From: a virus
Lineage: Duplodnaviria; Heunggongvirae; Uroviricota; Caudoviricetes
DNA: 64,000 nucleotides
IMG/VR virus record: IMGVR_UViG_3300028030_000006
Location: 29,611-93,610 of that record
Strand: one strand, 5' to 3'
Below, piece by piece: positions 11,951 through 59,789 of this stretch. The number at the start of each line of letters is the position of its first letter. Position 1 is the first letter of the stretch. Made by a program: the position numbers and the translations under genes. The notes below the pieces were generated by a model, which was given only the letters and a program-made list of their open reading frames with translations, made no database searches and was not told where the DNA came from.

Positions 11951-13604
11951 TTGTTTCCTTTTTTGTTACTAATAGGTTTTGGTCAGCAAAGTAAATATAC
12001 TTAAATTCAGCATTGTCTAACGTGTGTAGTGCATCTTCTACAGTTTCAACAAGAGGTTCCCCACTTAAGTTGAAGCTAGTATTCCCTAATACGCCTACTC
12101 CACTAAGTTTTTTATACTCGACAAGAATGTCGTATAGTACTTTGTTCTGCTCTCGAGTGACTGTTTGTACTCGTGTTGTTAGATCATGATGAACTACAGC
12201 AGGTATTTGTGCTTTAACATCTTCAGTTGTAGGAAATGCTACCATCATATAAGGACTACTAGTGATACCAATAGGATCCCAAAGTGTTGATAAATCTTCT
12301 TCAAGTACGCTACAAGCGAAAGGTCTAAAGTACTCACGTTTTTTAACGCGATTCATACTATCTTTCCCGTCGTGTAATGTTGGGTTAAATAAAAATGAAC
12401 GATTACCTAAAGCTCTTGGACCTGCTTCTGAACGTCCTTGGTATAAAGCAACAATCTCACCCTCATCCACCAATTTAGCGATTTCTTTAAGATTTCCAGG
12501 CTTAGTTACCATGTACTCATAAATTGGTACCACATCATCAGCAGTATACTCCCCACCGGTGTAGTAGTTATCTATACCGCGAACCTTATTAATATCTCCA
12601 CCTGCTGTGATAAATCCGTACTTTGCTGCACCTATACTATTACCTGAATCATTACAAGTAGGCTCAAACCAGAACTCGTAATCTGGAAACTTTTGAAGAA
12701 GTTTCGCATTATTTACAACATTTAACCCGTACCCGCCAGAGATACAAATATGTTTACTACTTGGATTCATTGCAATAGCCCTACTCACAAGCATAGTAGC
12801 TAGCTGTTCGCTAGTATATTGAATTTTTCTAGCGATATTTTCAGCGAACCCTTCAGGATTACCTTTATTTACCTGAGCTGTTACTGTATCTGTAACGCTA
12901 GTTGTCGCAGGATAGTGCGGTTCAAAGTACTCTAGCTTACCTCGATTACCTGTATATAATTGAGGGATACGACTATCGAATTTACCATAAGCAGCTAAAC
13001 CCATTGTTTTTCCTGCTTCGATAGGGTGCCAACCTAATAACTGAGTTACGCCTTCATACATCTTCACTATGGTAGGCTCTGGCGCTACAGTTACATCACC
13101 AGACGTGCCTCTCAATTCAACGTTATTGGTTATAGCTTCTAGATGTAAGCGTTGAATACCTGCAGAAGCAGAAGCTTTAAATATCGACTCTGCCTCATAA
13201 GCAACATCAGTATCTGTAACTTTCAGCTCACTACCAGCACCATCAATGACAACTACAGTAGCATCATTAAATCCGCTATTTAAAAATGCGTTAGTAGCAT
13301 GCATAAGATGGTGTTTATCGCTTACATCTATAACATTTTTAACAGTCGCTCCTAGTTTTTCCAAGAACTCAACGTAGTAACTCGTACCATTCCACGGCGT
13401 TGGTGTAATAGGTGTGGTTGCTGATAGTACTAATGTGTCAATCTCTTTTGTATATTCAAGTACTTTTAACAGTGCTTTAAAAGGATTACCATCTCTTTTT
13501 ACTCTTGATAAGCGTTCTTCTTCTATATGCAGAACTAGCTCACCATCTTTTAGTAGTGCTACGGAACTGTTGTGTCCTATAGCAACTCCAAGTATGTAAC
13601 TCAT
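11940..13604 (-). CDS. NodU/CmcH-family carbamoyltransferase
   Basis: N-terminus 'MSYILGVAIGHNSSVALLKDGELVLHIEEERLSRVK' matches the carbamoyltransferase N-terminal (ASKHA-like) signature. The 554-aa length is typical. Confidence 0.6.
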   Translation of the reverse strand: MSYILGVAIGHNSSVALLKDGELVLHIEEERLSRVKRDGNPFKALLKVLEYTKEIDTLVLSATTPITPTPWNGTSYYVEFLEKLGATVKNVIDVSDKHHLMHATNAFLNSGFNDATVVVIDGAGSELKVTDTDVAYEAESIFKASASAGIQRLHLEAITNNVELRGTSGDVTVAPEPTIVKMYEGVTQLLGWHPIEAGKTMGLAAYGKFDSRIPQLYTGNRGKLEYFEPHYPATTSVTDTVTAQVNKGNPEGFAENIARKIQYTSEQLATMLVSRAIAMNPSSKHICISGGYGLNVVNNAKLLQKFPDYEFWFEPTCNDSGNSIGAAKYGFITAGGDINKVRGIDNYYTGGEYTADDVVPIYEYMVTKPGNLKEIAKLVDEGEIVALYQGRSEAGPRALGNRSFLFNPTLHDGKDSMNRVKKREYFRPFACSVLEEDLSTLWDPIGITSSPYMMVAFPTTEDVKAQIPAVVHHDLTTRVQTVTREQNKVLYDILVEYKKLSGVGVLGNTSFNLSGEPLVETVEDALHTLDNAEFKYIYFADQNLLVTKKETNGK

Positions 13605-14871: not shown

Positions 14872-15786
14872 TTAGACCCCCTCAAGTAATGTTTTAACAT
14901 AAGTTTCCTTTCCCTTAAATTTACCAGACTCGCATACCTTACTTACTAATGTCTGAATCAAGTCTGTAGAGTCTGGTATGTCTTCAACTTCTGCATTTGT
15001 AACATCAATTACTTTAGTATAAAATACATTATTAAATTTTGGTAGTTTATTTAGCTCTTCTAACGTCCCATTTACAACTACTTTGTAAAGGTCTGTAGGA
15101 TTTGGTTCAAAATCCATGAAAGCATCGGCTTCTCCTACTAATTTAATCTTTTGTGGTAGTTGTAAATCTACATACTCCCAAGATAAGTCATCATTAATCA
15201 CAATATAAGAACCAGTAGGTTTACTAGATGTGAATGCTACTTGGTATGGGGATGAGGTATAGAAGGCATTACTTGCAACTTTGTACTTATGATGAATATC
15301 TCCAAACACGCAAAGTTTGTAGTTTTTAATAAACTGCATATCTCGCTCAGCCTTAATATGCGGAGGCATGTTGGCTCTAACATGTGTAATTAAAACATCA
15401 GCTGAACCAGTAGTAAGTCTCTTTAATACGCTCCAAGACGTGAGGCGGTATGTATTACCATCTAAACTGATTATCTTATCTTTAATATATTCACAATTGT
15501 GTGGAAGCACAAAGTCATATAATGATAGTCGCTTTTTTACGTTGATAGCTTCGTGATTTCCATCTAACAATAATACCTTAGAGACTTTACTTATCTCAGT
15601 AATAAAGTACTGAGCGAGCTGTACCTCCTCTAAGGTTGGTGGCATACTGTCCAGCAGATCACCATTAATGATAACTACTTGGTACGACTTATCAACAAAA
15701 TGTGCCGCCAGCTGCATCACACGACGTTCCTCAAACAGCTTATGCTGCCTGAGTTTAATGTGTATATCGGATACTACTGCTACCAA
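14872..15786 (-). CDS. Mre11/SbcD-type nuclease (calcineurin-like phosphoesterase)
   Basis: Motifs 'VVSDIHIK', 'INGDLLD', 'GNHE' and 'GDIHH' are present. It lies in the same cluster as a Rad50/SbcC homologue. Confidence 0.7.
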   Translation of the reverse strand: MVAVVSDIHIKLRQHKLFEERRVMQLAAHFVDKSYQVVIINGDLLDSMPPTLEEVQLAQYFITEISKVSKVLLLDGNHEAINVKKRLSLYDFVLPHNCEYIKDKIISLDGNTYRLTSWSVLKRLTTGSADVLITHVRANMPPHIKAERDMQFIKNYKLCVFGDIHHKYKVASNAFYTSSPYQVAFTSSKPTGSYIVINDDLSWEYVDLQLPQKIKLVGEADAFMDFEPNPTDLYKVVVNGTLEELNKLPKFNNVFYTKVIDVTNAEVEDIPDSTDLIQTLVSKVCESGKFKGKETYVKTLLEGV

Positions 15787-16601
15787 GCTAGATCATCATC
15801 CGGCTCTTCTTGAGTACCAGACCCTACTGGAGTAGCTTGCTTTGTACTATCAGGTGCTTGTAAACTCTCACGCCATGCTGCCATTTTCTTAGCTACGTCT
15901 GAAATCATATCACGAGTTTCAGGATTTGAAAAGAAATCAGCTGGACGCGGTGTAAATACACTTGCATCAGTATCAATAACCGTATAAGTTGTACTACCTT
16001 TTTTCTCTTTTTTAAATTTTAATGTATAAATTCCGTCCATGAGACCTTTTGACGGTTTATTATCAGTCAGAACCCCAAATGTATAATATGTTTTCCCTGA
16101 AATCTCATAGATTGCTGGAATCCAAGGACTTTTAGCATCAGAACGTACAAGTACGCCCATAATTTTACGCATTTTCCAACCTGCGGCCTTTTTATCTTCC
16201 TTAGATTTAGGTAATGGTTCACCATTAGCTAGGTTAACAGCTGAAGCCATCCCAGTAGTTACATCAGTAAACACATTTGAAGTCTCTGTACGTTCTTTTA
16301 CGTCGTCCCAACGACTATATTGATATGCTGTATCAATCACGAAAATATCAAAAGACACACCTAAATTGATACCCTTATCAGTAATAATACGCTCACCTGC
16401 ATCATTTTTCTCGGACTGTACGTTTACAACATGCTCACCCCATTTACCTAGTTCGCTGTCCATATCGGCAATCTTCTTTACGAATGAGAATGGTGCACCT
16501 TTTCCGCCAGTATTTGATTCCATTTGTGCTAACATTAATGCTGCTGTTTCTTCTCCAAATACTGCTATTAACTCTTCTCTACTCATTGTTACATTTTCCA
16601 T
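15780..16601 (-). CDS. Hypothetical protein
   Basis: 273-aa ORF in the recombination cluster, with no recognisable motif. Confidence 0.45.
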   Translation of the reverse strand: MENVTMSREELIAVFGEETAALMLAQMESNTGGKGAPFSFVKKIADMDSELGKWGEHVVNVQSEKNDAGERIITDKGINLGVSFDIFVIDTAYQYSRWDDVKERTETSNVFTDVTTGMASAVNLANGEPLPKSKEDKKAAGWKMRKIMGVLVRSDAKSPWIPAIYEISGKTYYTFGVLTDNKPSKGLMDGIYTLKFKKEKKGSTTYTVIDTDASVFTPRPADFFSNPETRDMISDVAKKMAAWRESLQAPDSTKQATPVGSGTQEEPDDDLAW

Positions 16602-16756
16602 TATATTTCCTTTGTTTTACGCTGTTGTTACGTTGTTTAAATTTATGTATTGTTGAACTATTAACCTTACCTCTTACCACGTTATTATGAGTCTTGTGTT
16701 ATGCTGATATCATTTGCACTCCTTATTAAATTAGTTTAATTATACACTATTAATGC

Positions 16757-17461
16757 TTAATTTAAGCTTAAAGCATACTCAATAAATGGTAATTTTGGTT
16801 GAAATTTCGTACCATTCCACGTGAATTTTACTTTATTTGTAGAATTTGACAAATGTTGAGCAGTGTATGCCATATAATGTACTGTAAAATTACCAATCTG
16901 TTGTCGAATACTACGTTTAAAGTTTTTGTAGTTAAGAGTCACGACTACTGGTTCCGTACTATAAAAGTATTCTGTAAACCTCTCCAATTCAAGTTTGCAA
17001 GGCTCACAAATACCTGTTTCAGTAACCTCAGTATCTCCACAGATAGCACATACAGGAATATCTATCGGCCGACCTAAAACCTCATAAATATTTATAACCT
17101 CAGCAACATCTACAAGTAATAGTAGTAATTGACCTTTGGTTAATCCTAGTGTTTTAGGTGTTGATAAGTAACTTAATACCTTAAGTGTTTTGAATGATAA
17201 CTTGGAGCTATCTTGGGTATTAAAATAACTAATAATATCAGTTAATAGGTCATTGGGCTCTCTTGTAGTATGTCGCATCTTAGGCCTCTTAATTACCTCT
17301 GCTGCCATAATATTTAACAGCAGAGGTAATCCTGGGATATATATATCTTGTATTATCCTAGTCTCTTTAAGCGCTAGCGTTTTTAGGCTAGCAACATCAT
17401 CAAATACTTGTAATATATCATCAATATTTATACTTGAATCACTCATATATAACCTCCTCAA
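16757..17461 (-). CDS. Hypothetical protein with C-terminal zinc ribbon (CAICGD...CEPC)
   Basis: 234-aa ORF with a CxxC...CxxC pair. Confidence 0.45.
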   Translation of the reverse strand: MRRLYMSDSSINIDDILQVFDDVASLKTLALKETRIIQDIYIPGLPLLLNIMAAEVIKRPKMRHTTREPNDLLTDIISYFNTQDSSKLSFKTLKVLSYLSTPKTLGLTKGQLLLLLVDVAEVINIYEVLGRPIDIPVCAICGDTEVTETGICEPCKLELERFTEYFYSTEPVVVTLNYKNFKRSIRQQIGNFTVHYMAYTAQHLSNSTNKVKFTWNGTKFQPKLPFIEYALSLN

Positions 17462-19061
17462 TTGTAGCTATCCCACCCTCTTTAATAACTTTGATGCTTC
17501 CTGTAAACGCAATTTTATCTAGTTGCTGTCCGTGTGATACTAATGCAATAAATTTTTGATCATTAGTAATTAGATAGTCAAACAGTTTCGCTAAGTCATC
17601 ACTAGCTGATGAATCTAAAGTATCTAACGACTCGTCGAATATTAATAAGTTTGTGGACGCATTTGTTAGATCTTTAATCGTGTATAGCATCCCAAGCAAT
17701 AATATTAAACGCATTCGAGTCTTTTCTCCACCAGATAATGAGTTTACGTGTATATTTTTGTTAAATCTTACATCATAAATAACAAAATCCACGCTAGATT
17801 TACTAGTTGTAGCTTGTACCGAGATATAAGGCAAGTTTACAAACGTTTTAAACTGGTTTAAGTAGGAGTTTAAGACCACTACAAATGTCTGTAATAGCTG
17901 CTTATGTAGATTTCCGCTTTTTATAATGCTTGACGTGTGGGATAGTATGTAATAGTCATCCTTCAACCTTCCCAATACAGCCTCAGCTTGTACTAAATCT
18001 TTGCGTAGGTTAGCTGTCTTATCTAAATTATCCTCATATATTTGATTCTTGGTATCAGCTGCTGTGATATCTAGTGTGATTCTATTGATTTCATCTGATA
18101 GCTCGATCTTCGTATCCTCTAACAGTGTTATAGTCTTAAAGATATCGTATGGCAATTCAGCTAAACTACGCTCAATCTCTGATAACTGCAACTCCAGGTC
18201 TGATATCGCTAGCTGAGACACGTTAATCGCGGCACCACAACACTTACATAATCCACTTTTCATATCTAGAAGTTTAGCTTCAGTGCTTGTTTGCTCTTCT
18301 TGTAAGCGTCTAAGTTGTGTACGGTACTCTTTATACTTAGTTAGTTTCGCATTCACATCAACTAACTTGGATACAAGTGACGCTTTATTTTTATGCATCC
18401 CAGACGTATCTATTTTGGTATATGTTGATAGCAAATCTAAACTGTTATTTATAGTTTTGATGCTAGACACTTTGCTGCTGATTTGGGAGTCTAAATCCTT
18501 AATTCGAGCTTTTACTCCTTTATCGATTGCAGATATCTGATTAAAGTCTAGTATAATTTTCATCAGACTAGAAGATGAGAAATTATCTAACAAATCACTG
18601 ATAGTTGTATGTGTGATGAATGTAAGAGTAATAAATGTAGTCAAATCCATACCAATAATATCTTGGATACGGCGTAACGCTCTTGGTATGGATGTTAAGC
18701 CTAGGTCTTTACCATCCTCAAGGATTGTTATTTTCATTAATTCTCTGTCATTAATTACTGTGTACACATGTCCAGACTTTTCAAACTCCGTAGTAAGTTT
18801 ATACTCTACTGTAGTACCACTCCCTATAAGCCGCCTAGATGTATCCTCAATAGGGATATTCAACGTCGTACGATTAAACAAACACTGCTGTACAGCCTCA
18901 AGTATAGTAGTCTTGCTACTACCATTTGATGAGAAAGGTCCATCCCTATTCTCACCATAGATTGACCACAAACCGGCCTTGTATTCTAATTTTACATCTT
19001 TAACTGCTTTAAAGTTTTGTATATGTATCCAGTTAAACTTCATTTGTTCCGATATCTCCAT
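17439..19061 (-). CDS. Rad50/SbcC-type ATPase (short form) with CxxC zinc hook
   Basis: N-terminal P-loop region 'NGSSKTT' is present. The central coiled coil carries a 'CKCCG' zinc hook. The ABC signature 'LSGGEKTRM' and the D-loop 'LLIFDESLDTLD' are present. Confidence 0.7.
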   Translation of the reverse strand: MEISEQMKFNWIHIQNFKAVKDVKLEYKAGLWSIYGENRDGPFSSNGSSKTTILEAVQQCLFNRTTLNIPIEDTSRRLIGSGTTVEYKLTTEFEKSGHVYTVINDRELMKITILEDGKDLGLTSIPRALRRIQDIIGMDLTTFITLTFITHTTISDLLDNFSSSSLMKIILDFNQISAIDKGVKARIKDLDSQISSKVSSIKTINNSLDLLSTYTKIDTSGMHKNKASLVSKLVDVNAKLTKYKEYRTQLRRLQEEQTSTEAKLLDMKSGLCKCCGAAINVSQLAISDLELQLSEIERSLAELPYDIFKTITLLEDTKIELSDEINRITLDITAADTKNQIYEDNLDKTANLRKDLVQAEAVLGRLKDDYYILSHTSSIIKSGNLHKQLLQTFVVVLNSYLNQFKTFVNLPYISVQATTSKSSVDFVIYDVRFNKNIHVNSLSGGEKTRMRLILLLGMLYTIKDLTNASTNLLIFDESLDTLDSSASDDLAKLFDYLITNDQKFIALVSHGQQLDKIAFTGSIKVIKEGGIATIEEVIYE

Positions 19062-22825: not shown

Positions 22826-23629
22826 CTATTCTCCTATTGCTAGTATGACAGGATTACTATGTCGTAACTCATTTGGATACCCAAACGGATTTACTATAAT
22901 ATCGGTCCCAGCAATGGTAGCATGTGCTTTTGTATGAGTATGGCCAGCTAACCAATACTGCATACTTCCATCTTTTACTAAATCTTCACAATCCATCACA
23001 AAAAACCCAGTAGTCGGCTCCAATCTGTACTCTGGAGCTAGTAGTGCTTCATTCATTGCTGGTGGATAATGTGAAATCATTACATCACATTCCTTATACA
23101 CAGATTTTAGCTTAGGAAGCTCCATTAAATACATTTCTTCAGGATCGTCTAAGTTATCTATCCAAACAGCATCGTTTAGGGTCTGGCTGTAAAATCCTAA
23201 CACTTTATCCTTATCCCAACCAAACTTTAGGACTTTATTGATGTATGGGGTACCATAAGACCAACCCATAGCACCACCAAATGTTACACCATCTATAGTT
23301 TTAGTTGTGCCGTTAAGTATTGTTACAACTTCTGATTCGTAGTTTACGTACTCAGTAAACCGTTTCATCGACGTATTGTGATTATCATTATATAGATCAT
23401 GATTACCTAACACAGCAATCACATGCTTAAAGTTAAATATTACTGCAATTCTTTCAAGTACGTATAAGGATTGTTTAGTGTCGTGCCCTAAGTCTCCTGG
23501 AACACACAATACTTCAACACTAATATCAGAACTTAAAACATCCTTAAACACCTCATAAATTTCAATGTCCTTTGCGTTAGCACGTACATGTGAGCTAATA
23601 TGTAAATCAGAAAGTACATTTATCTTCAT
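22826..23629 (-). CDS. Calcineurin-like metallophosphoesterase
   Basis: Motifs 'MKINVLSDLHIS', 'VPGDLGHD', 'LGNHD' and 'GHTHT' are present. Confidence 0.6.
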   Translation of the reverse strand: MKINVLSDLHISSHVRANAKDIEIYEVFKDVLSSDISVEVLCVPGDLGHDTKQSLYVLERIAVIFNFKHVIAVLGNHDLYNDNHNTSMKRFTEYVNYESEVVTILNGTTKTIDGVTFGGAMGWSYGTPYINKVLKFGWDKDKVLGFYSQTLNDAVWIDNLDDPEEMYLMELPKLKSVYKECDVMISHYPPAMNEALLAPEYRLEPTTGFFVMDCEDLVKDGSMQYWLAGHTHTKAHATIAGTDIIVNPFGYPNELRHSNPVILAIGE

Positions 23630-33132: not shown

Positions 33133-33879
33133 TTAGATAGAGTATATCGGAAAGCTGCTTAAAACTTCCTTAATCTCTGCTTCAGTTACATTATTTGGTA
33201 GCGTAGTCTGATCTTTCCATGATGGTCCAATATCTAACTCAGCTTCGTTGTGGATAACTTGATTCTCACAATAATCTTGTACCATATGAGGGATAAGGTG
33301 GTCGTTTAACCATTTAATACTCTCAACATCAGCTTTCACTAAACCATACAAGGCATCATGTATTTGGTTAGTTACAATAACGTAATCTTGCATACTATCG
33401 TGCTCAATATCTTCTTGTAACCCAATACCAGCTCTGTTCATCAATAAACCGTATGACTGAATACTCATATTATTTAAAGTTCTACCTTCTTTACCAGCAA
33501 TAATACGGTCATTGCTCCATATCCTAGGGGTACGTAATTTTAACCCGAAAGCTCCAATAATGTATCCTGTAGCTTTCGATTTACGTATGTTCTCTTCTGC
33601 AAATTTAGCAGTACCGTAGTACAGCTCATGGTACCCGTCATAAACTGCATTTGCTACAGTTTTAGAGCACTTCAATAGATCCTGTATCTTACCTGGACCT
33701 GAACCATAAGCCATCGCAAAAGATGGGCTTTTACTTTTCGCCCTAATATCTGGCAACTCTGTTTTAATTCTGTTGATGGACTTTGGATCACTCATATCCA
33801 ACTCTTCGCCTAACGCTTCGTCTATCTCGTCTTTAAAGAACGCGTAAGCTCTTAGACTATGTCCATCGAACCCTTCACC
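33133..33879 (-). CDS. DNA polymerase A, C-terminal part (exon 2 or second polypeptide): O-helix (motif B) and motif C
   Basis: The open frame extends upstream of the track start (a TTG at 33801) to a stop at 33880-33882. It contains 'IRAKSKSPSFAMAYGSG' (motif B, R..AK...F...YG) and 'NQIHDALYG' (motif C, with HDA in place of HDE). Confidence 0.6.
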   Translation of the reverse strand, partial: GEGFDGHSLRAYAFFKDEIDEALGEELDMSDPKSINRIKTELPDIRAKSKSPSFAMAYGSGPGKIQDLLKCSKTVANAVYDGYHELYYGTAKFAEENIRKSKATGYIIGAFGLKLRTPRIWSNDRIIAGKEGRTLNNMSIQSYGLLMNRAGIGLQEDIEHDSMQDYVIVTNQIHDALYGLVKADVESIKWLNDHLIPHMVQDYCENQVIHNEAELDIGPSWKDQTTLPNNVTEAEIKEVLSSFPIYSI

Positions 33880-34010
33880 TTAATGTTCAACATAGGTCGT
33901 TAATCTATGCCAGTTCTCTTATGAACTTCTGTATATCTCTATACAGAGCAGATCATCTCAACATCCTAGTAATTTAAGGATGACCACCGTTTCTTCCCAC
34001 TTGGGTTCTA

Positions 34011-34196
34011 CTAGCTTACGCTATGATCGTTAGACATTTTAATAACGTCTGATATAATATTATGTGTAAATAGTTCTGTATTCCCTTTTCTCACCAATAC
34101 TCTCGAGCCTGTATACAATTTATCTTGATGTTTATTACGTATTTGTTGCTCAATTTTGTGGGCTAATTCTAAAGCTTCAAGTTCTACTGAGTACAA
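34011..34196 (-). pseudogene. Remnant of a T5orf172/GIY-YIG-like endonuclease C-terminal domain
   Basis: The 61-aa ORF 'LYTGSRVLVRKGNTELFTHNIISDV' parallels the C-terminus of the neighbouring 315-aa endonuclease ('YYGRKVIRSGNTELYTQDITEI'). Confidence 0.4.
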
Positions 34197-34393
34197 GATG
34201 TAATAATTTCACATTTATATCCGTTATTAATTTAGTACGGGATTGTCCACAACCTTACTTGTTTGGAGTTTCCCCGTTTAGATGGTTTTCGACATAAGAT
34301 TACTCTTATGAAGCCCTGAAATCAAGGAATTCTTTTCGTTTATTGGAGTCACCTGAAACCTGAGCCCCCACCCTATCTTCCTTTAAGGTTCCT

Positions 34394-35341
34394 TTAAGGT
34401 TCCTTTGTAATACTACCTAGGTATTTTGTGGTAATTTCGGTAATATCTTGGGTGTAAAGTTCAGTATTTCCTGACCTAATTACTTTTCGTCCGTAGTACT
34501 TGAATGGTTTTAATATTCCAGCTAGGTCAGCCTCTGCCTTATATGCTAATTCGCTAGAACCAAACGTATGCTGGTAGAGTACTATGTAAGGTTCAGGCTC
34601 TCCACTAAACCTATGTTTTACTGTATGTATAGTAACTCCAAGCTTCCATAAATTAAGTCGGGTAAAGTATATGACATACAAGAGTGTTTTAGTTTCTATG
34701 TCTTTATTTAAGTACCCTCGGTTACATAATGGACATCCTTTCCCTTTTCGATGGTTTTGATAGTCTTGTCTCACCTCGCCATGCACAGGACAGTCATAGA
34801 TAATCGTTGGATTTGCATCGACGCGTGCATAGATTAGGTCTTTATATGTATAAGTATGATTATGTGTTTGTATTAGTAGAGGTATTACCTGCTTTAACAT
34901 TACACGCTTCTGTTTGGCTGATGATAGAAAACCACAACACTTACAACCCTTACCTTGTAGATGATCATATTTTCTCTGTTTTCTAATACCATGCTCCATA
35001 CATATATAATAGACGTAATGTTTATCGATTTTTACATAACTATACTGATTATTATGAATTTTAGAGCAACGAATTTTAAAATCTTTAAATGATATCCTCC
35101 GATTAAGACCACGCTGCTTTCTAGCACAGATAGGACACCCATATTTAGTCTTGAGAATACCATCTGGCGTACTAGTAAAGTCTCCATGTAACTTACATGT
35201 AAATACTGATTTACATTTTGCACAAGAAAAGCTAAATTTATCTGTTAGAATCTTGCCATGGAATCTATTTTTGATTCGTTCTCTGTAAACCATAGAATAA
35301 TCTTTCACTTTACTTTCCTTCTGTTTTGTTGTTAATACCAC
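34394..35341 (-). CDS. Homing endonuclease-like protein: N-terminal Zn-ribbon repeats plus C-terminal T5orf172/GIY-YIG-superfamily domain
   Basis: Repeated CxxC pairs (CAKCKS, CPICARK, CKCCG, CPLCNRG) are present. The C-terminal 'LLYVIYFTRLNLWKLGVTIHTVKHRF...AEADLAGILKPF...GNTELYTQD' fits the T5orf172 pattern. The gene is located inside the polA interruption. Confidence 0.55.
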   Translation of the reverse strand: MVLTTKQKESKVKDYSMVYRERIKNRFHGKILTDKFSFSCAKCKSVFTCKLHGDFTSTPDGILKTKYGCPICARKQRGLNRRISFKDFKIRCSKIHNNQYSYVKIDKHYVYYICMEHGIRKQRKYDHLQGKGCKCCGFLSSAKQKRVMLKQVIPLLIQTHNHTYTYKDLIYARVDANPTIIYDCPVHGEVRQDYQNHRKGKGCPLCNRGYLNKDIETKTLLYVIYFTRLNLWKLGVTIHTVKHRFSGEPEPYIVLYQHTFGSSELAYKAEADLAGILKPFKYYGRKVIRSGNTELYTQDITEITTKYLGSITKEP

Positions 35342-35605
35342 ACTATGTCTCCATAGTGAATAGACTATATCACCACCCGTAGTGTAATCTACGGGGCTCC
35401 CCGTTTCGAGCTACCACTGCTCTACGTCTTACGACTAGTCGTTGAACCTTATCCATATCTAATAAAGACTTAGGATCTTGGCTGCTGATTGTCTCTATTA
35501 CTTAAATTTTCAGAGTTCGTTACATATTTCTATGTGATATTCTATTAAGTACCTTATAAGATATTCCAGCAATTAGAGGAGTTTTTCCAAATCTTATTAC
35601 TAAGA

Positions 35606-37393
35606 TTAGGCGCTCAAAGATTCAAGCGCCGCGTAGTCAGACGACCAAAATAAATAACCTTCTGGGGCGGGAAAGCAGGCTTTAATCAATTTTCCCATCG
35701 CCCCTTTTGAAGGGAGATTCGCGAAGTTTGGTGAGTTACTACTCAACCGACCTGTTACAGTTCCTCCAAGACGTTGATTGCCGTACAGACGTCCAATATC
35801 TCCTTGCCCTACATCTGTCCAAAGATCTTCAAACGCCTTCAAGAATGTTGATAGTACGATACTAGTCTCTGAGATAGTTATAAGATTTTCTAATGCCTCC
35901 TTAGCATCCGGATCTGTTACTTTATCTAAAAACTCTATAATACTGTCACGATTAGTTTTAGGTTGCTTTTTATCTGTAAAGTCAATAGGCTCAAACTCTA
36001 GAATATCAAAGAGTAATACACGTAGCTGAGCAGAACTATTAGGGTTAAATTTAAGATCCACAAAATCATCCGCAGTTTTCTTTTTAACTTTAGTCTTAGC
36101 ATTATACTTATCAGCAGCCTCTAGACGTAGTTGTGTTAGAGCCTGTTTGACGTAGAAATTATCTTGCAACGTATCCATAGCTGCATCATAGAGTTTCTTA
36201 ACGTGTATTTTTGCTTCTTTTGTCTTTGTTTTTGAGATAGGCAACCCGGCTACCATCATATTTACTAAGTACTTTAAAGAGGGTTGAATAATAATACGAT
36301 ATGTATCTTCTTGCTCTTCTTCTTGCATAAGCTTATAGTATTTATTATAGACCCAAAACGTGCCTACTACATCCATTGCATTGTACTTATAGAGAGTATC
36401 TTTAGGTAAAGCTAGTACGTCTTTAACGTCGACTGCATAATCACCCAAGTACTCATAAGCTAAGTCCTTCAAAGATAATGAGAATCTAGATGTACTATTC
36501 AAAGATAAAAATGCCATTAGCATCGTATCTTCCGAATCTAAATAATTAGCACCTAACGTACGCCCAATGTGATCTAAAGGGTCTGCCATAAACAGATGAC
36601 GCACTAAAAACTTAGCATCAAATAAATAGTTATGGAAAATCTTAACACCATTGTAAGCAATAAAAAACTCTTTAAGCCAACCTTTAACTTCTTCTGCTTT
36701 ATCTTTACGCTCTTGGTCAGTACCTTCCCACAACGATTCATGTATAGGTAAAGTAACCGCTTGAGTATCAGACCATGCAAATGCAATAGACACCAACTCA
36801 TCACGCTCAAAGCGTAAACCTGTAGCCTCAATATCAATAGCTAGTATATCTTTGGATAATAGATGCTGTAATTCCCTCTCAGTACGTATTACCTTATAAA
36901 AATCAAACTTGAATTTTTTATCTTCTATTTCCTCATGGTTCATCTCAGCGGCTATACGTTTTAATGCTAAGTCTTGAGTTTTCTGCCGATCAGGGTACAT
37001 TTGAAGTAACACATGACTAAGCATAGGAATTACTTTAATATGCTCATAGCCTGAAATAGCACATTGAAAGGCTTTACCAGCATTCTTTTCAATGCCTTTT
37101 GTACCAGCTAAGTAATAAAAATACTTTGAATCTGTAACAATGATACGTTCAATCCCAAGTGTATCACACTCGTCTAACACCTCACTAGCACTTTCCACTA
37201 AATCCTTCTTTTTCAGATTTCCTGTAGCTGGGTAGTATAAGCCAATAGCTCCTATGTCAGCACCTGCAGGCACCTCAGTAGAGTATTTACTTATTGGGTA
37301 GATATAATTTTTTAGTATGAGATCCTTTTTGAGATTCACTTGCTTAACTAGTAACGCCGTTGTTTGATTAGTATCTATACCAAATCTTAACAT
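35606..37393 (-). CDS. DNA polymerase A, N-terminal part (exon 1): 3'-5' exonuclease domain plus polymerase palm up to motif A
   Basis: Exo I 'LAIDIEATGL' is present. The polymerase region ends with motif A 'FWSSDYAALE' and then runs into an in-frame stop after 'SLSA'. Confidence 0.7.
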   Translation of the reverse strand: MLRFGIDTNQTTALLVKQVNLKKDLILKNYIYPISKYSTEVPAGADIGAIGLYYPATGNLKKKDLVESASEVLDECDTLGIERIIVTDSKYFYYLAGTKGIEKNAGKAFQCAISGYEHIKVIPMLSHVLLQMYPDRQKTQDLALKRIAAEMNHEEIEDKKFKFDFYKVIRTERELQHLLSKDILAIDIEATGLRFERDELVSIAFAWSDTQAVTLPIHESLWEGTDQERKDKAEEVKGWLKEFFIAYNGVKIFHNYLFDAKFLVRHLFMADPLDHIGRTLGANYLDSEDTMLMAFLSLNSTSRFSLSLKDLAYEYLGDYAVDVKDVLALPKDTLYKYNAMDVVGTFWVYNKYYKLMQEEEQEDTYRIIIQPSLKYLVNMMVAGLPISKTKTKEAKIHVKKLYDAAMDTLQDNFYVKQALTQLRLEAADKYNAKTKVKKKTADDFVDLKFNPNSSAQLRVLLFDILEFEPIDFTDKKQPKTNRDSIIEFLDKVTDPDAKEALENLITISETSIVLSTFLKAFEDLWTDVGQGDIGRLYGNQRLGGTVTGRLSSNSPNFANLPSKGAMGKLIKACFPAPEGYLFWSSDYAALESLSA

Positions 37394-37656: not shown

Positions 37657-37948
37657 CTAACTCCTCCAATTTGAGTTGACGTATCCTCTCATCACATATA
37701 TGTTTAATTTTTTCATAGTCAGTAATTCTAGAATCGCCTTGCTTGGTACGCAATACTCGTTTAATAATGTCAGCATCCCAAGCATTTAAGCTATATTCTT
37801 TCCAGACCGCCCAAGGCTGTATGAAATGATTTGAGTAGTCACTAGTACCTACATTAGTACCACGAACTTCTGTATCTAACATACCGAGCTCTAACAGCTT
37901 TTTGTAGATAGGTTGCGGCACCACCTCCAATTTTTCCTCATCTATCAT
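37643..37948 (-). CDS. Hypothetical protein
   Basis: 101-aa ORF. Confidence 0.35.
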   Translation of the reverse strand: MIDEEKLEVVPQPIYKKLLELGMLDTEVRGTNVGTSDYSNHFIQPWAVWKEYSLNAWDADIIKRVLRTKQGDSRITDYEKIKHICDERIRQLKLEELDDKI

Positions 37949-39249
37949 TCTTCAATCCTCCCTATATGTTGAGATATGACCTTCTCTAAGGTATCAGCGT
38001 CATCCAGATCCACTCGCATTTGATCATACCTAGGTAAAAATAGACTATAAGTATCACTATCACGGCCTTTAATAAGTACATTAAACGTCACTTCGATAAT
38101 CTTACCTATTGGCGGCGTTTTAGTAAACATTTTAACATGCTCATCTGACAGTCCGCTACCGACGTTCACCTTGATCCGCCCATCAGCAGACTCACAAACT
38201 AGAGATCCTACCTGCCCAGCACGCTTACCTTTACCATTTACGACACCAACTACTCTCAATGAACATGAATTAACAGCTTTCATCTTAATCCAAGCTTTAG
38301 TACGTTTAAAGTTATATGGTGCATTTCTATCTTTAATAATTACACCCTCACCACCGGCATTTATAATCTCCTCATTAAACTGTTTAACTTGTCGCATTGA
38401 AGTCGCTAATCTAGACTCGGTAGTCTTTATATGTAGGGATTTAGTAAAAATTACACGTTTTTGTAATGAAAGTGTACGTTCATATTGAGGGTTAGACTTT
38501 CCTTGAGTTAAAAATACGTCTGTAGGAAGCTCATCAAAAGTGGAATACGTAATTATATCGTCGCTATTTGGCTGGTATCCGGACTTCAGGTTTTTATTAC
38601 AAATCCCTGATATAACAGTACGCTGTTCAGTGATTAATTCCCCATCAAACGTTAAGTCCTCACCATTAGCAACTTCTAAACATGCCTTCTCAATCTGAGG
38701 AAAGTGCAGTTCTCGGCCTTGTCGAGTAAATAGTGTACATTTATTATCTTTGATAACTGCTAAACATCTTACACCATCCTCTTTCTTTTCAACAATAGCA
38801 GGAAACTTGAACTTTACCTTCTCATCAAGCGGTGATGCTAAACCGCACTTGAATGTAGGGATAAAAGTATATCCAAAAGCTTTATTTACAGCTGTATCTA
38901 CACCTAACGCTAACTGTTTAGTGATAATACCTTCAACTACTTCTACAACGTCGGGATGTGTGTGTGACAACACGTTTAATGCCTTTTGTCGTAATTTATC
39001 ATTGATATTACTACTACGCAATATGTCTAGTAAAGATATAACATCATCAAACGTTGTAGTAGGCTCCAACATACGATACTCTTCAAATTTCTTAATCTTA
39101 TAAGAATACATAGGGTTTAACCTATATAAAAGTAAAGTCCGAAAATCTGCATCATCTTTGTACTTACGTAATACCTCAAGTTTATCATTTTTTCCGGTGG
39201 TACTTTTCAGTTCTTGTAATTTCTGTGTTGCTTGTTTTAATCGTTCCAT
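37945..39249 (-). CDS. ATP-dependent DNA/RNA ligase (nucleotidyltransferase with KxDG motif I)
   Basis: Motif I 'VEKKEDGVRCLAV' is present, along with downstream nucleotidyltransferase/OB-like regions. Length is 434 aa. Confidence 0.6.
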   Translation of the reverse strand: MERLKQATQKLQELKSTTGKNDKLEVLRKYKDDADFRTLLLYRLNPMYSYKIKKFEEYRMLEPTTTFDDVISLLDILRSSNINDKLRQKALNVLSHTHPDVVEVVEGIITKQLALGVDTAVNKAFGYTFIPTFKCGLASPLDEKVKFKFPAIVEKKEDGVRCLAVIKDNKCTLFTRQGRELHFPQIEKACLEVANGEDLTFDGELITEQRTVISGICNKNLKSGYQPNSDDIITYSTFDELPTDVFLTQGKSNPQYERTLSLQKRVIFTKSLHIKTTESRLATSMRQVKQFNEEIINAGGEGVIIKDRNAPYNFKRTKAWIKMKAVNSCSLRVVGVVNGKGKRAGQVGSLVCESADGRIKVNVGSGLSDEHVKMFTKTPPIGKIIEVTFNVLIKGRDSDTYSLFLPRYDQMRVDLDDADTLEKVISQHIGRIEE

Positions 39250-41468
39250 CTCTCTCCTTTAATTAGTTTAAAGTAATCATCCCGAAGCTTGACAGCATCA
39301 GTATACGGATATTTTGTAGCCAGTTCAATTACATGATACTCGATAGCTCTATACATATTTTCACGTATTTGTTGAAGTTTGCTTCTATCATCCTTAACTT
39401 TATATACTCTTGTTGCAACTGCTCGCATATGTTTCCAAAAACGATACCATCTAGTTTTATATTTAAATCGGTAGCCGTTAGCCCCTACATAAACATACCC
39501 TTCAACGAAGTTTTGACGATCTGCATTAGTATCTTGCTCCATCTCTTCGATATCTGCACGAAGTTCTTCTATAGTACTTATAACTTTTACTACAGATACT
39601 CGATGAACACCCTCGAACAGTACTTGTACATTAATCATTTCAACCTCACTTAAAACCTCAAACTTAATTTGATTCTTAATGGCATCGAGTAAAATTATTT
39701 CTGGTTTAGTATATTTAACTATATGTGGATCTTTTATTGGTTCGATTACTTCAAATGTGAGTGTAACATTATTATCCACTAGAAAATCTCGTAATTCATC
39801 TGTTAGATATGGTTTAAGCTGTTCACGAAACCATATACTATGGGATGATGTAATAGAGCTTTTTGATGCTATAAACCAAGCATCTTTGATAGTATCATAC
39901 GATAAAAGTCCTAAGTAACCATTAGGTTTTTCAACCTTCACGGTAGGGAATGTGATCTGGTTTGTGATTGCATCAAAATCTGTTTGAGGGTTCTCTTTAT
40001 AATTGAAAAACTTCTCGTAGCCTCTTGCAATAATGCTAGAGTCACTACGTATGAATAATCCTCGAGCTTTCGTAGATATGTCATCATACGTACCAGTTTT
40101 AAACGCTTTAGTAGTAAAGTTACAAGCAAACACATCATAGTCTAACTCTCTAACATTTACCATAGTATGTTCCTGCATTAGCTCAAATAAAGGTTTATCA
40201 TTCGCACATACACAAGTAGTTGAAGGCTCATATAATGAAGGATTAGTAGTAAAAGTATAGTCGGTATTTTTAACGGTATGTACTGTACAATCACCATCAA
40301 CAGGCACAATAACAGCTACTAACTCTCCACCATACTCAACGTTTCCTGTGATATTATACATACGATTTTTTACAACTTCTGGCTTCTGTTGTTTAATATT
40401 ACGATGTCCGTGTATTTGCAGCGCACGTGTTGGCATAGCATTAAGCCAATGTTCTTGTATCTTAGTAATATCAGAATAACTACCAACTCCTTTAATGAAT
40501 TCCTTAGTAGATGTTAGCAAACTAGGTATAGTGGGATATCCTGCATGATTAGCGAAAATAATACGATCACCAAACTTAGCATGAAACATTTGCCAATATC
40601 TAGTACGTAAACGTGTTACATCTTTTACTGTAATACCTGCCTGCATAAACTGATAAAAAGTTCGACGTGTTGCTGGGGATAGTTTAACTGTGCGTTTAAA
40701 TTCAGCATACTTATGATCTCCCGATGTACGTGCTGCTAACCACTCTTTGTAATGTATTAAGTGAGAATCATGATTACCTTCTAGTAGTACGTAATCAGGA
40801 CTGTCTTGGATAAGTTTAAATACTCCAGCCGCATCCTCTCCTCGATCAAACAAATCACCGATAAACACTGTCAACTGTTTATCCTGTTCTGTATCACTTA
40901 AGATTTGTTTAAGTTGTTTAAAGGAACTATGAACATCACCGATAAATCTAATACTATTATACTTATCCGTATAATCGAATAACGCTTCGTCTATTGTAAA
41001 CTCATCAGGTTTTACTACTTTAATCCAAGAAGGTATTATATTGTACTGAATACGCGCATACATGTTATCAATAACGTCTGCAGGAACTCTTTTAACGCCG
41101 CGTAAATCATTACGGCGGTGTAATTCTTCTAACGATACATCTCTAAAATCTACTGCAATAATTCGATATCTATACTGTTTGGCAAGTGTACGATACCTAT
41201 TAATCAGTTTAGAGCGCGTATGTGTTGCATCAATAATTGTAAAATCACCATTCTGCATTCGATGTTCTAGTAGTGTGAATAAGTGATCCCACACAGCTCC
41301 GTCATTCTTTTGTGATATGCCTTTGGATCCGTCTATCTGAGTTTCTGGTGCTTGGTACTGTAATCTAATAATGTCTGGAGACAATGTATAAGATTCTAAT
41401 CCTTGTGACGCAATCCACGTCGATTTTCCTGAAGCTGGCGTACCTACAGTAATAACTAATGTTCTCAT
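39237..41468 (-). CDS. Pnkp-like trifunctional end-healing/sealing enzyme: polynucleotide kinase, lambda-phosphatase-like phosphoesterase, and a C-terminal ligase-like domain
   Basis: The P-loop 'ITVGTPASGKSTW' is present. Phosphoesterase motifs 'GDVH', 'GDLFDRGED', 'LEGNHD' and 'HGHR' are present. The C-terminal 'VEKPNGYLGL' resembles ligase motif I (KxNG, as in Rnl2 KIHG). Confidence 0.55.
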   Translation of the reverse strand: MRTLVITVGTPASGKSTWIASQGLESYTLSPDIIRLQYQAPETQIDGSKGISQKNDGAVWDHLFTLLEHRMQNGDFTIIDATHTRSKLINRYRTLAKQYRYRIIAVDFRDVSLEELHRRNDLRGVKRVPADVIDNMYARIQYNIIPSWIKVVKPDEFTIDEALFDYTDKYNSIRFIGDVHSSFKQLKQILSDTEQDKQLTVFIGDLFDRGEDAAGVFKLIQDSPDYVLLEGNHDSHLIHYKEWLAARTSGDHKYAEFKRTVKLSPATRRTFYQFMQAGITVKDVTRLRTRYWQMFHAKFGDRIIFANHAGYPTIPSLLTSTKEFIKGVGSYSDITKIQEHWLNAMPTRALQIHGHRNIKQQKPEVVKNRMYNITGNVEYGGELVAVIVPVDGDCTVHTVKNTDYTFTTNPSLYEPSTTCVCANDKPLFELMQEHTMVNVRELDYDVFACNFTTKAFKTGTYDDISTKARGLFIRSDSSIIARGYEKFFNYKENPQTDFDAITNQITFPTVKVEKPNGYLGLLSYDTIKDAWFIASKSSITSSHSIWFREQLKPYLTDELRDFLVDNNVTLTFEVIEPIKDPHIVKYTKPEIILLDAIKNQIKFEVLSEVEMINVQVLFEGVHRVSVVKVISTIEELRADIEEMEQDTNADRQNFVEGYVYVGANGYRFKYKTRWYRFWKHMRAVATRVYKVKDDRSKLQQIRENMYRAIEYHVIELATKYPYTDAVKLRDDYFKLIKGERWND

Positions 41469-57109: not shown

Positions 57110-58879
57110 TTAGCTAAAGCCTTCTATAACTGTATTTATGTACTTTAATACTGCTGTATAATCACCAGGCATGATTTTTACTCCTTTACGTGGATTTGAC
57201 ATATAGATCGTTTTAATTCCCTGAGTTTTTTGACAATCTATATGTAAAGGTATATTTGAATTAAGAACAGAGGATAGTGCTTTAAATTCAATACCATATT
57301 CATCATATAGTATGTCTTTCAGTGGTTGATCACCTCGATACACACTAATAGAACGTCTATCCTTATACGCTACAAACTTAGTAGGATCAGGTAACGGCAG
57401 CGTTGTATGTTTAACCTCATCCACCTTAGCCACACCGCCAACTGTAAGCATGATAGTCCGTGAATCTAATACCTCTTTAACCTGTCTAGGGATTTTAGAG
57501 TACGAGTCTACTACAGGAAGGACAATATCTCCTTCCTTAAATGTATCTGTAACAGATACACTATTTACTGCAATAATATTTTCTGTAGTTACAGTAAACA
57601 TAGTATCACTAGACATTATAGTAATACCAGATACATCTATTGACCTAATAATACCACTGTGGATGATGGAAGTATTAGGATTGGTAAATGTTACATTATC
57701 ACCAACCTGTACAAGTAGATGACTAACAGAGTTGATAGATACTACAACACTGGTATTTTCTGCATATATATTTATAATATTCTGCTGTTGATCTACACTA
57801 ATTACCTCGAAAGTACCTCCTCGAAGGGTTTTAGGTATCTCTGGATCAAACCGTAACACAACTTTCTGGTTTGGTCTGATTTGCAGCCCTGGTGTATACT
57901 CTACAATTTCATCAAGTCGTTTGGATAACACATCCCCAGTAGAGTTTCTATATTTAATCTCATCATCACTTACCGATATAACTGTATAACATCTTGTAAT
58001 ATTCCTGAAGTATACTCGAGAGCCTACTGGCGGCTCTAATACACAATTTGACTCCCGCGCTTTAAGTTCTGGTAAAGGTTCATCACGTTGGTGATAGGAA
58101 ATAATTTCTTCACTAACAGCAGTTATTACACCTTTTTGTAACTCTGCATCTTTTTGATATACTTGTATATGATCACCAATACGAAATTTTGTGGACTCTG
58201 GTGGCATTTCTCCTCCTTTTTTAATATGTACTATTTTATTATTACGGACCCATGTAGTAGTCCCAGATGGTTGTTGTATTTTGAACATTCTCTTGAAGGC
58301 ATCTATCTCTCCAACAGTTACCTCATGAGCTATACCATCATCATAAAATAGTAGCTCATCATCAACTTGTGGCACTAGTGAGTGTACAAAAGATAAGTTT
58401 ATCCTAGTAATTTTGCGTGTTTTTGGATCTTGGACATCAAAATCTAATGATACGTCTGGCATAGAAACTACATTTACTACAGCTTGAGAGAATTCATGAG
58501 GGATGGAGACCAGTACACTCGAGTGTAATTTAATTTGGTCTCCAATATTCAACTGTAAAGGCTTGGGACACACTTCCCTAATACTGCCATAATCTTTAAT
58601 ATTTTCGTATAATAGAGTAGTAGAAGTAAATATGCCTCGAGTCCTAACATAATAACTTAAGTAGAAATAACGAATAGAGTCATCATAGTCAAATTTAACC
58701 TCATCACCAATGTCAGGTCTAAGCATTAGATGCTTAGTATCCCAGCGAGTTACCCCATGTTCTGGTATCTGTACGGTAACCACATCAGAATTTGTTGAAA
58801 GTATCGTGCCTATTGAGTCTGTTGACTTATTATATACCTTATTACCAACATGAAAAACTTTTGAAACTTCCGATGACAT
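57110..58879 (-). CDS. Large hypothetical protein built of repeated small beta-barrel-like (SH3/KOW/Tudor-like) modules. Translationally coupled to the RT.
   Basis: The 589-aa product has recurring '(V/I)GD.(V/I)...' modules: VGNKVYNK, IGDQIKLH, IGDHIQVY, VGSRVYFR, VGDNVTFT, EGDIVLPV. Its ATG lies 1 nt after the RT stop (TGAtATG), with a GAGG RBS inside the RT 3' end. Confidence 0.5.
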   Translation of the reverse strand: MSSEVSKVFHVGNKVYNKSTDSIGTILSTNSDVVTVQIPEHGVTRWDTKHLMLRPDIGDEVKFDYDDSIRYFYLSYYVRTRGIFTSTTLLYENIKDYGSIREVCPKPLQLNIGDQIKLHSSVLVSIPHEFSQAVVNVVSMPDVSLDFDVQDPKTRKITRINLSFVHSLVPQVDDELLFYDDGIAHEVTVGEIDAFKRMFKIQQPSGTTTWVRNNKIVHIKKGGEMPPESTKFRIGDHIQVYQKDAELQKGVITAVSEEIISYHQRDEPLPELKARESNCVLEPPVGSRVYFRNITRCYTVISVSDDEIKYRNSTGDVLSKRLDEIVEYTPGLQIRPNQKVVLRFDPEIPKTLRGGTFEVISVDQQQNIINIYAENTSVVVSINSVSHLLVQVGDNVTFTNPNTSIIHSGIIRSIDVSGITIMSSDTMFTVTTENIIAVNSVSVTDTFKEGDIVLPVVDSYSKIPRQVKEVLDSRTIMLTVGGVAKVDEVKHTTLPLPDPTKFVAYKDRRSISVYRGDQPLKDILYDEYGIEFKALSSVLNSNIPLHIDCQKTQGIKTIYMSNPRKGVKIMPGDYTAVLKYINTVIEGFS

Positions 58880-58880
58880 A

Positions 58881-59789
58881 TCAACGCCTCGCTCTCGGCT
58901 CTTTACATGAAGCCCACTCTATTAATCCTAATGTACGTGTAATATCTTGCTGATGTATCGCTTGGCGAAGTTGCATTTTAGTCTTTCTAGTACGATATAC
59001 CTGTGTATGATCTACCGCAACACCACAAATGATACGACGCATCCAAGGCTTATGCCCAAACTTTAATTTGGTCTTTTTAAAGTTAATCTTAAAGTTCGAC
59101 TCTTTTAAAAGATGATAAACGGTCTGCTTAATGGCTTCATAATCCATGCGATTGTTAAATGAGATCGTAATATCATCAGCATATACTGTCATACGTGCCT
59201 CAGAGGCTATTGTACGTACAGCATCATCTATTTGGTATGCTACCTCGATAAAGGCTATCGAAGCCAGTAAAGGACTTGTAGGAAGTCCTTGTCGGGTTAC
59301 ACCATTTAACAGACAATAATCGAGGATATCACTACTTATAGATAAGTTGTCAAACCTTTCTCGTGTAATTTGGTCGAAGAAGTTTTTCATGTCGAATTTC
59401 GCCGAATAGTTATACCCAATATGAGCTTTAGCATTTGTAACCGCATTGTAATTACTACGAAAGGCGTGAAACATTCCTCGTGTATCCATCAGAGACAGAA
59501 TTTGCTCAAGGTTTGGCAATAAGGATTGTAGTTTATGCTTATACTGGGTATTTGGAGCATATACATAGCGATAAGACCCATTACCTTTATCTATACGATG
59601 TACTTTACATGCTTTACACAACACTGTTGCTGTAAGTAGGTATGCAGCCTGCTTTGGCGTTTTATTTGTAATGTCATGAGTAGCTCCGTCAATAGTAATG
59701 ACATTATTATCTTCGTCGATCGTGACTTCAGGGTTGAAGCGGTAACGCCACTTCAACTCTTTCCAATCTTTGATTTTAGAGTTCGACAT
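58881..59789 (-). CDS. Reverse transcriptase (small, retron/Abi-like domain set)
   Basis: RT motifs are in order: 'GMFHAFRSNYNAVTNAKAH' (NAxxH), 'FDMKNFFDQI' (motif A Asp), 'QGLPTSPLL' (QGxxxSP), 'MTVYADDITISF' (YADD), 'INFKKTKL' and 'RRIICGVAVD'. The 302-aa gene has a strong RBS, AAGGAGGTAGT, before its ATG. Confidence 0.75.
   Translation of the reverse strand: MSNSKIKDWKELKWRYRFNPEVTIDEDNNVITIDGATHDITNKTPKQAAYLLTATVLCKACKVHRIDKGNGSYRYVYAPNTQYKHKLQSLLPNLEQILSLMDTRGMFHAFRSNYNAVTNAKAHIGYNYSAKFDMKNFFDQITRERFDNLSISSDILDYCLLNGVTRQGLPTSPLLASIAFIEVAYQIDDAVRTIASEARMTVYADDITISFNNRMDYEAIKQTVYHLLKESNFKINFKKTKLKFGHKPWMRRIICGVAVDHTQVYRTRKTKMQLRQAIHQQDITRTLGLIEWASCKEPRARR

Follow-up and report, generated by a model that had tools for sequence, protein, structure and literature searches.

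A phage kinase-metallophosphoesterase-ligase fusion with a Trl1-like sealing module, a predicted one-polypeptide RNA repair enzyme

The described systems closest to the locus reported here come from a phage, a bacterium and fungi. Bacteriophage T4 repairs anticodon-nuclease damage with Pnkp and the RNA ligase Rnl1, and the Pnkp of Clostridium thermocellum (CthPnkp) heals tRNA halves for sealing (PMC1920235). Wild-type CthPnkp turns a cyclic phosphate into a 2'-phosphomonoester, which it goes on to remove, so providing ends for T4 Rnl1; its H189D variant stops at 2'-PO4 and so provides ends for the yeast ligase (PMC1920235). Residues H189, R237 and H264 of CthPnkp are needed for the Mn-dependent monoesterase and dispensable for the diesterase (PMC2190708). 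The ligase of the fungal tRNA ligase Trl1 (Trl1-LIG) has two defining features, a unique C-domain and a 2'-phosphate site. Motif I contributes Asn150 to this site, His227 follows nine residues behind motif III, and Arg334-x-x-Arg337 lies beyond motif V (PMC6379707). The site's His-Arg-Arg triad enforces 2'-PO4 end specificity (PMC11404444, PMC12440814), and 2'-phosphate ends are not joined by T4 Rnl1 (PMC12440814). The DNA analysed here, called the window, is a stretch of 64,000 nucleotides of a Caudoviricetes virus (positions 29,611 to 93,610 of the IMG/VR record IMGVR_UViG_3300028030_000006). It encodes a protein of 743 amino acids (aa) that joins a kinase, a metallophosphoesterase and a ligase in one chain, and beside it a 434-aa ATP-dependent ligase. 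We propose that the 743-aa fusion is a self-contained heal-and-seal RNA repair enzyme in a single polypeptide, most plausibly for breaks made by host RNA-cleaving defences, and we give this reading a probability of about 0.72.

The open reading frame (ORF) of the fusion has three Pfam domains: AAA_33, the Pnk-type kinase (residues 4-140, E 7e-21), Metallophos (residues 173-312, E 8e-11) and RNA_lig_T4_1 (PF09511, residues 467-675, E 1e-31), the last covering the entire model from 1 to 227. In addition, phrog_8238 ('RNA ligase') matches the protein end to end, with an E value of 8e-182. The original prediction, made from the sequence alone, had described three domains in this ORF and a ligase ORF adjacent to it; both are exactly as described, and every motif quoted lies within a significant domain match. 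The order it gave, kinase, lambda-phosphatase-type phosphoesterase and ligase, is indeed that of Pnkp. The C-terminal KxNG that it pointed out is genuinely motif I of a ligase, in a nucleotidyltransferase fold, according to PF09511 and to alignments with Trl1 and Rnl1, and the protein is thus more than a fusion of Pnk and phosphatase.

The fusion has kept its three active sites intact. In an alignment of 30 homologs, 35-61% identical to the window protein, their essential residues are invariant, the one exception being H353, with at least 90% conservation. The kinase residues K15, S16, D32, R35 and R123 align with K15, S16, D35, R38 and R126 of T4 Pnk, and the phosphoesterase residues D178, H180, D205, R209, N232, H233 and H353 align by motif with D187, H189, D233, R237, N263, H264 and H376 of CthPnkp; H308 and H355 complete the list of essential residues in this domain. 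In the ligase, R469, K486, F487, K514, N516, G517, E573, E656, G657, K669 and K671 are invariant in the 30 homologs, and the catalytic residues of this module are also invariant across 151 cluster representatives. The AlphaFold model, built on the same alignment, has a predicted local distance difference test (pLDDT) score of 87.3 and consists of a kinase-phosphoesterase body and a ligase body, parted by a disordered linker. Compared with T4 Pnkp and Rnl1, the fusion is likewise phage-borne, has the same three predicted activities, and shares a homologous kinase (E 3e-10) and adenylyltransferase core. In contrast, T4 uses two separate proteins, and its 3'-phosphatase is a DxDxT (HAD) domain, whereas that of the fusion is a metallophosphoesterase.

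Profile comparisons place the ligase module in the T4 Rnl1/Trl1 superfamily, with the fungal Trl1-LIG ('Rnl6') as its apparent closest relative. The family profile scores 108.7 bits with Candida glabrata Trl1-LIG (E 2e-30) and 82.8 bits with Chaetomium Trl1-LIG, against 50.9 bits with T4 Rnl1, suggesting that the module is nearer to the fungal enzyme than to T4 Rnl1. K514, in the motif VEKPNGYLG (codon 39927-39929), aligns with the motif I lysine of both, and it is joined by R469, K486, F487, E573, E656, G657, K669 and K671 in aligning with T4 Rnl1 residues. The Trl1 alignments stay collinear past motif V and through the helical region, up to a conserved 'II.LR..FL' segment, in which R729 matches the 'IIKLRNxFL' of Trl1. 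In contrast, the homology of a T4-type Rnl1 (Yersinia phage MHG19) to the family model stops right after motif V, and this protein has Asp for N516 and Ile for H582. The T4 type has KxDG, no His at the H582 position and an unrelated C-domain. Furthermore, the fusion falls short of the equivalog-level score of the T4 Rnl1 family in the strict sense (TIGR02308) and does not have the T4-type C-terminal tRNA-specificity domain. A profile of the C-domain only, compared with the PDB, found the Trl1 C-domain at the right position, but its E value of 0.16 is not significant.

Relative to CthPnkp, the fusion has the same domain order and a similar healing half, and in the fold search CthPnkp is the nearest structure to its kinase and to its phosphoesterase. 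The ligases differ, that of CthPnkp being Rnl4. An assignment of the C-terminal module as a Pnkp (Rnl4) ligase was considered and ruled out: the Pnkp ligase domain PF16542 has no match on the 743-aa protein, the NCBIfam Pnkp equivalog TIGR04075 matches residues 3-240 only, with 60.7 bits against a cut-off of 750, and no structure of Rnl4, the CthPnkp ligase domain, is among the listed fold matches. The kinship with bacterial Pnkp that had been predicted therefore stands for the healing half and not for the ligase.

The Trl1 alignments also cover the 2'-phosphate site. N516, H582, K679 and R682 stand exactly at the positions of Trl1 Asn150, His227, Arg334 and Arg337; H582 aligns to Trl1 'EEHIL', and W678-K679-x-x-R682 is a putative counterpart of R334xxR337, with a conservative exchange of the first Arg for Lys. 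Among the 151 cluster representatives, mutually no more than 50% identical, N516 is found in 150, H582 and R682 in all, and the K679 position has Lys in 149 and Arg in two, so that the four residues are as conserved as the catalytic lysine. In Staphylococcus phage SEP1, gp099 (L001 8001-10337) has Lys at the R682 position (WKYMK), and Arg is therefore not absolute there in members from cultured phages.

The fusion differs from fungal Trl1 in several respects. The order of Trl1 is ligase, kinase, cyclic phosphodiesterase (LIG-KIN-CPD), against kinase, metallophosphoesterase, ligase here; 3' healing is the task of a 2H cyclic phosphodiesterase in Trl1 and, by prediction, of the metallophosphoesterase in the fusion; and the C-domain has four helices in about 70 aa, compared with five helices in about 79 aa. 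The first Arg of the triad is Lys in the family of the fusion, which is found in prokaryotes and phages with no Tpt1 associated. No Tpt1/KptA was found in the window, in 14 fetched loci, or within 10 kb in 80 bacterial loci, for which a Clostridioides-phage KptA probe was added. The Escherichia coli KptA probe found 98 phage records, none of them from Staphylococcus phages, and the kptA of phage phiCD211 has no RNA ligase neighbour.

The family is large and apparently uncharacterised. With clusters defined at 50% identity, the ligase module search returned 2072 cluster representatives at E<=1e-3; tightening the cut-off to E<=1e-10 left 908, and to E<=1e-30 left 393, the last being taken as the family count. 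Of the best 151 representatives, 109 have the architecture kinase-metallophosphoesterase-ligase, 30 ligase only, 11 metallophosphoesterase-ligase and one kinase-ligase; some of the shorter architectures may be fragments. The module is present in 134 cultured-phage records, nearly all from Gram-positive hosts or Fusobacterium. The phages of Gram-positive hosts include those of Staphylococcus (Twort among them), Lactobacillus and Brochothrix, as well as SPbeta-like Bacillus phages. At least 263 species-representative bacterial genomes also have it, mostly Lachnospiraceae and other Clostridia, with some Bacilli. No paper on a kinase-metallophosphoesterase-Rnl1/Trl1-like family was found in the literature; the survey of Burroughs and Aravind (Nucleic Acids Res 2016) was outside this search, so an earlier description is possible.

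The annotation of the family in GenBank is heterogeneous, its members being labelled as RNA ligase, tRNA ligase, polynucleotide kinase, protein phosphatase, 2',3'-cyclic nucleotide phosphodiesterase or hypothetical protein. In the Staphylococcus phages S-CoN_Ph16, Ph15 and Ph8 the gene is split into two coding sequences named 'RNA ligase'. The long members (821-1035 aa) have no extra domains apart from one LAGLIDADG-type insertion, at residues ~345-425 in the phosphoesterase region of a 1035-aa homolog (P0160), apparently an intein or homing endonuclease. Two further hits, L089 and L047, are on contigs labelled 'MAG: archaeon isolate Horse_feces6' and 'Bifidobacterium catenulatum' bin. They are probably mis-binned Clostridia or phage contigs and not true archaeal or actinobacterial copies.

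In bacteria the fusion is a solo gene: at 80 species-representative loci no recurrent neighbour was found, only local synteny among related Lachnospiraceae, and no DNA ligase lies beside it at any of them (E<=1e-3). The other contexts inspected were Staphylococcus phages SEP1 and CF1, relatives with 60% and 53% identity, a related phage, a 631-kb phage-like contig, two shorter contigs with the same fusion protein, and bacterial chromosomes; none of them has a DNA ligase beside the fusion, and the phage and metagenome cases amount to seven independent contexts other than the window. The 60% and 53% relatives (L003 6251-10232 and L005 5111-8153) are the two nearest with a long contig fetched. 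In both, the fusion gene comes directly after the gene for the anti-Pycsar protein Apyc1, amid nicotinamide adenine dinucleotide (NAD) salvage genes (NAMPT, Prs, NMNAT and Nudix), a setting suggestive of a counter-defence island. The 3' end of the fusion gene in these two loci is overlapped by a conserved protein of 225-241 aa, with ThyX coming next. In the 631-kb contig the fusion gene is near NAD-synthesis genes.

The data show what the domains are, that the active sites are intact and conserved, how the folds are related and that no partner is conserved; we infer from them which reactions the 743-aa protein catalyses, that RNA is its substrate and that it acts in counter-defence. The substrate would be broken RNA ending in a 2',3'-cyclic phosphate and a 5'-OH. 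The central Mn-type metallophosphoesterase would open the cyclic phosphate, as in CthPnkp probably via a 3'-OH,2'-PO4 intermediate, and would then probably remove the phosphate. The N-terminal P-loop kinase would phosphorylate the 5'-OH, and the C-terminal ligase, adenylylated on K514, would pass AMP to the 5'-phosphate and join the ends. With all three activities on a single chain, whose healing and sealing halves are connected by a flexible linker, the enzyme would need neither Hen1 nor a separate ligase, and self-sufficiency is supported both by the predominance of the full architecture among the 151 representatives and by the solo gene in the bacterial loci. The repair of host-inflicted RNA cleavage, already put forward in the original prediction, is retained as the best explanation for the 743-aa protein.

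The 434-aa protein is encoded immediately after the fusion, in a 13-nucleotide overlap on the same strand, and both ORFs have a Shine-Dalgarno sequence upstream. It has DNA_ligase_A_M (PF01068, E 1.5e-16) and DNA_ligase_OB_2 (PF14743, E 3e-10), and an N-terminal DNA-binding region precedes its nucleotidyltransferase and OB domains. K156 in KEDG (codon 38782-38784), DGE202, EGVI301 and KMK322 represent motifs I, III, IV and V. The protein matches phrog_114 (E 1e-92), its best PDB relatives are full-length ATP-dependent DNA ligases (6ras, E 2e-29 over residues 19-410; T4 DNA ligase 6dt1, E 2e-23), and matches spanning 80% or more of it occur in 1693 phage records. One of these, KVP40 gene 30, aligns over 95% with 29% identity. 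By full-length homology, domain composition and place in a replication module, it resembles gene 30 of T4 and KVP40; it is about 30% identical at most to the ligases of cultured phages, with no functional distinction detected. These matches identify the protein as a T4 gene-30-type DNA ligase. It thus groups with the phage gene-30 DNA ligases, an outcome that the original prediction had itself named as one that would refute it. From homology and position, it would be the replicative ligase of the phage, as part of a replication module with PolA, primase, helicases, ribonucleotide reductase and ThyX. It adjoins the RNA repair enzyme without being a functional part of it.

The coordinates of both ORFs and of the parts of the fusion are listed in the table.

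Table. Positions in the window of the fusion gene, its predicted domains and the adjacent ligase gene.
Feature	Position	Strand	Residues or basis
743-aa predicted trifunctional RNA repair protein (kinase, metallophosphoesterase, RNA ligase)	39237..41468	(-)	ORF; three Pfam domains; phrog_8238; AlphaFold model; stop codon 39237-39239
P-loop polynucleotide 5'-kinase, residues 1-160	40989..41468	(-)	K15 and S16, P-loop; D32, general base; R35 and R123 complete the site
Binuclear metallophosphoesterase (predicted 2',3'-phosphate end healing), residues 165-402	40263..40976	(-)	D178, H180, D205, R209, N232, H233, H308, H353, H355
Disordered linker between healing and sealing halves, residues 406-423	40200..40253	(-)	pLDDT <50
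RNA ligase adenylyltransferase domain with Rnl1-like N-subdomain, residues 424-672	39453..40199	(-)	R469, K486, F487; motif I K514-P-N516-G; motif III E573; H582; motif IV E656-G657; motif V K669/K671; PF09511; Trl1 and T4 Rnl1 alignments; invariance in 151 representatives
Four-helix C-domain, residues 673-743, collinear with the Trl1-LIG C-domain	39240..39452	(-)	W678-K679-x-x-R682; R729
434-aa ATP-dependent DNA ligase, T4 gene-30 type (by homology)	37945..39249	(-)	PF01068 and PF14743; phrog_114; PDB relatives; motif positions

The two ORFs belong to a minus-strand block in which tight packing and stop/start overlaps are the rule. The block includes a sigma factor, ThyX, ribonucleotide reductase, PhoH, DnaB, primase, a Rep initiator and helicases, together with 5'-3' exonuclease and Mre11/Rad50-like genes, and the 434-aa ligase gene is directly upstream of a split family-A DNA polymerase. 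A promoter and terminator scan between 33 and 46 kb gave counts at chance level, and no operon boundaries could be assigned. The phage itself is novel, without a nucleotide-level relative among cultured phages, none of which has a nucleotide match to the window between 37 and 42 kb.

Several points weigh against RNA repair in counter-defence as the role of the fusion. The chromosomal copies in Clostridia show that phage counter-defence is not the sole use of the family, and no measured activity of any family member was found in the literature. The block that holds the gene in the window is one for replication and nucleotide metabolism, not an obvious anti-defence island, and a tRNA scan of the whole window returned zero tRNA genes. 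Other RNA-repair genes are also lacking: no Hen1, Tpt1, RtcB, 2H or RlaP partner was found among the scanned window ORFs of at least 100 aa, with about 29.5 kb of the contig lying outside the window. Finally, there is an apparent tension over end chemistry, as the ligase has the Trl1 2'-PO4 site and the phosphoesterase keeps the monoesterase residues.

This tension leads to a variant of the RNA repair reading with yeast-type chemistry, in which the phosphoesterase would stop at, or hand over, a 3'-OH,2'-PO4 end and the Trl1-like ligase would require the 2'-phosphate; the 2'-PO4 at the junction would then have to be removed by a host Tpt1/KptA or by the monoesterase of the enzyme itself. The near invariance of the Trl1 ligand counterparts and their absence from T4-type Rnl1 are in its favour, as are the part that the triad plays in fungi and the fact that the 2'-phosphomonoester is an intermediate of wild-type CthPnkp. 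However, the invariance of H180, R209 and H233, the counterparts of CthPnkp H189, R237 and H264, predicts complete dephosphorylation and hence the T4-type route. In addition, no Tpt1 accompanies the family in the loci and Staphylococcus phage records mentioned above, and the first Arg of the triad is replaced by Lys. We consider this variant unlikely, and a strict dependence of the ligase module on 2'-PO4 is equally doubtful. An improbable explanation is that the fusion serves housekeeping or phage-autonomous RNA processing, for instance by maturing or circularising RNAs of the phage or the cell, and not the repair of defence damage. The solo chromosomal gene with ordinary cellular neighbours in many Clostridia would fit this, as would the position in the replication block. 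Nevertheless, with no tRNA genes the window has no split or intron-containing ones to process, the gene recurs in accessory or anti-defence regions of phages, and the characterised relatives all act on nuclease-generated breaks.

The module first suggested for this locus, in which the 743-aa protein heals RNA or DNA ends and the 434-aa ligase seals them, is very improbable. The overlap of the two genes on one strand is compatible with it, and kinase-phosphatases such as T4 Pnkp can heal DNA ends too. Against it, the 743-aa protein already has an intact ligase with all motifs invariant, and the 434-aa protein is matched over its full length by gene-30-type DNA ligases with DNA-binding and OB domains. 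Stop/start overlaps are nothing unusual along this block, and no DNA ligase is near the fusion in the 80 bacterial loci, the Staphylococcus phages or the closest relatives. Since the adjacency is not conserved and the fusion is complete, the supposed module is a juxtaposition of an RNA repair enzyme and a DNA ligase. The least probable reading is that the fusion is a member of the Pnkp/Hen1 type, in which a Hen1 methyltransferase would activate sealing and 2'-O-methylate the junction. The shared domain order, the CthPnkp-like kinase and phosphoesterase and the partial TIGR04075 match point in that direction. The C-terminal module, however, matches Trl1 and Rnl1, the Pnkp-specific profiles fail beyond the first 240 residues, and the Hen1 partnership proposed originally found no support, as no methyltransferase or Hen1 was found in the scanned window ORFs or recurrently beside homologs.

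Other features of the window were also observed. The family-A DNA polymerase is split in two ORFs (33133-37393, minus strand, as are all the following regions with a stated strand): 35606-37393 encodes the 3'-5' exonuclease and the N-terminal polymerase part, and 33133-33801 the C-terminal part. Between the halves is a 315-aa homing-endonuclease-like ORF with a DUF723 match (34394-35341), and the polymerase may be intron-interrupted or genuinely split. Two more metallophosphoesterase ORFs stand alone (in the regions 14872-19061 and 22826-23629, both minus), one paired with an SbcC/Rad50-like ATPase, probably as Mre11/Rad50, and the other adjoining a GP88-family protein and DnaB; both are related to the phosphoesterase of the RNA repair enzyme at the superfamily level only. 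A 302-aa reverse transcriptase ORF (58881-59789, minus; RVT_1, E 1e-23) has directly downstream a 589-aa ORF without Pfam match (57110-58879, minus), and the pair could be a diversity-generating retroelement or another phage reverse transcriptase system. In the region 11042-13604 (minus), a 554-aa carbamoyltransferase (Carbam_trans_N, Carbam_trans_C) lies beside a GT9-like glycosyltransferase and a RuvC-like nuclease, and this might be a nucleic-acid or surface modification module.

Phage RNA heal-and-seal counter-defence is already known from the T4 Pnkp/Rnl1 paradigm, and the family is already in databases as PHROG 8238. What is noteworthy is how the protein is composed: its healing half is of the Pnkp type, and the ligase fused to it appears nearer to the tRNA-splicing ligase of fungi than to T4 Rnl1 and bears conserved counterparts of the residues enforcing 2'-phosphate specificity in fungi. 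The finding is relevant for predicting which phages may resist tRNA- or RNA-cleaving defences, and an RNA repair enzyme in one polypeptide could be of practical use. The fungal-type features also bear on why bacteria have Tpt1; in their discussion of this, Shuman and colleagues left it open whether a fungal-type, 2'-PO4-dependent route of ligation exists there (PMC6182162). It is a tentative idea, and on balance an unlikely one, that the sealing module is a prokaryotic and viral member of the fungal-type (Trl1, 'Rnl6') clade whose Asn-His-Lys-Arg site recognises the 2'-phosphate. If true, phages and gut Clostridia would run yeast-type RNA ligation and install 2'-PO4 junctions. The orphan bacterial Tpt1/KptA enzymes would then have the 'fungal-type RNA ligase' that has long been missing, as well as a natural substrate, and the ancestor of the eukaryotic tRNA-splicing ligase would seem to have a relative in phages or bacteria.

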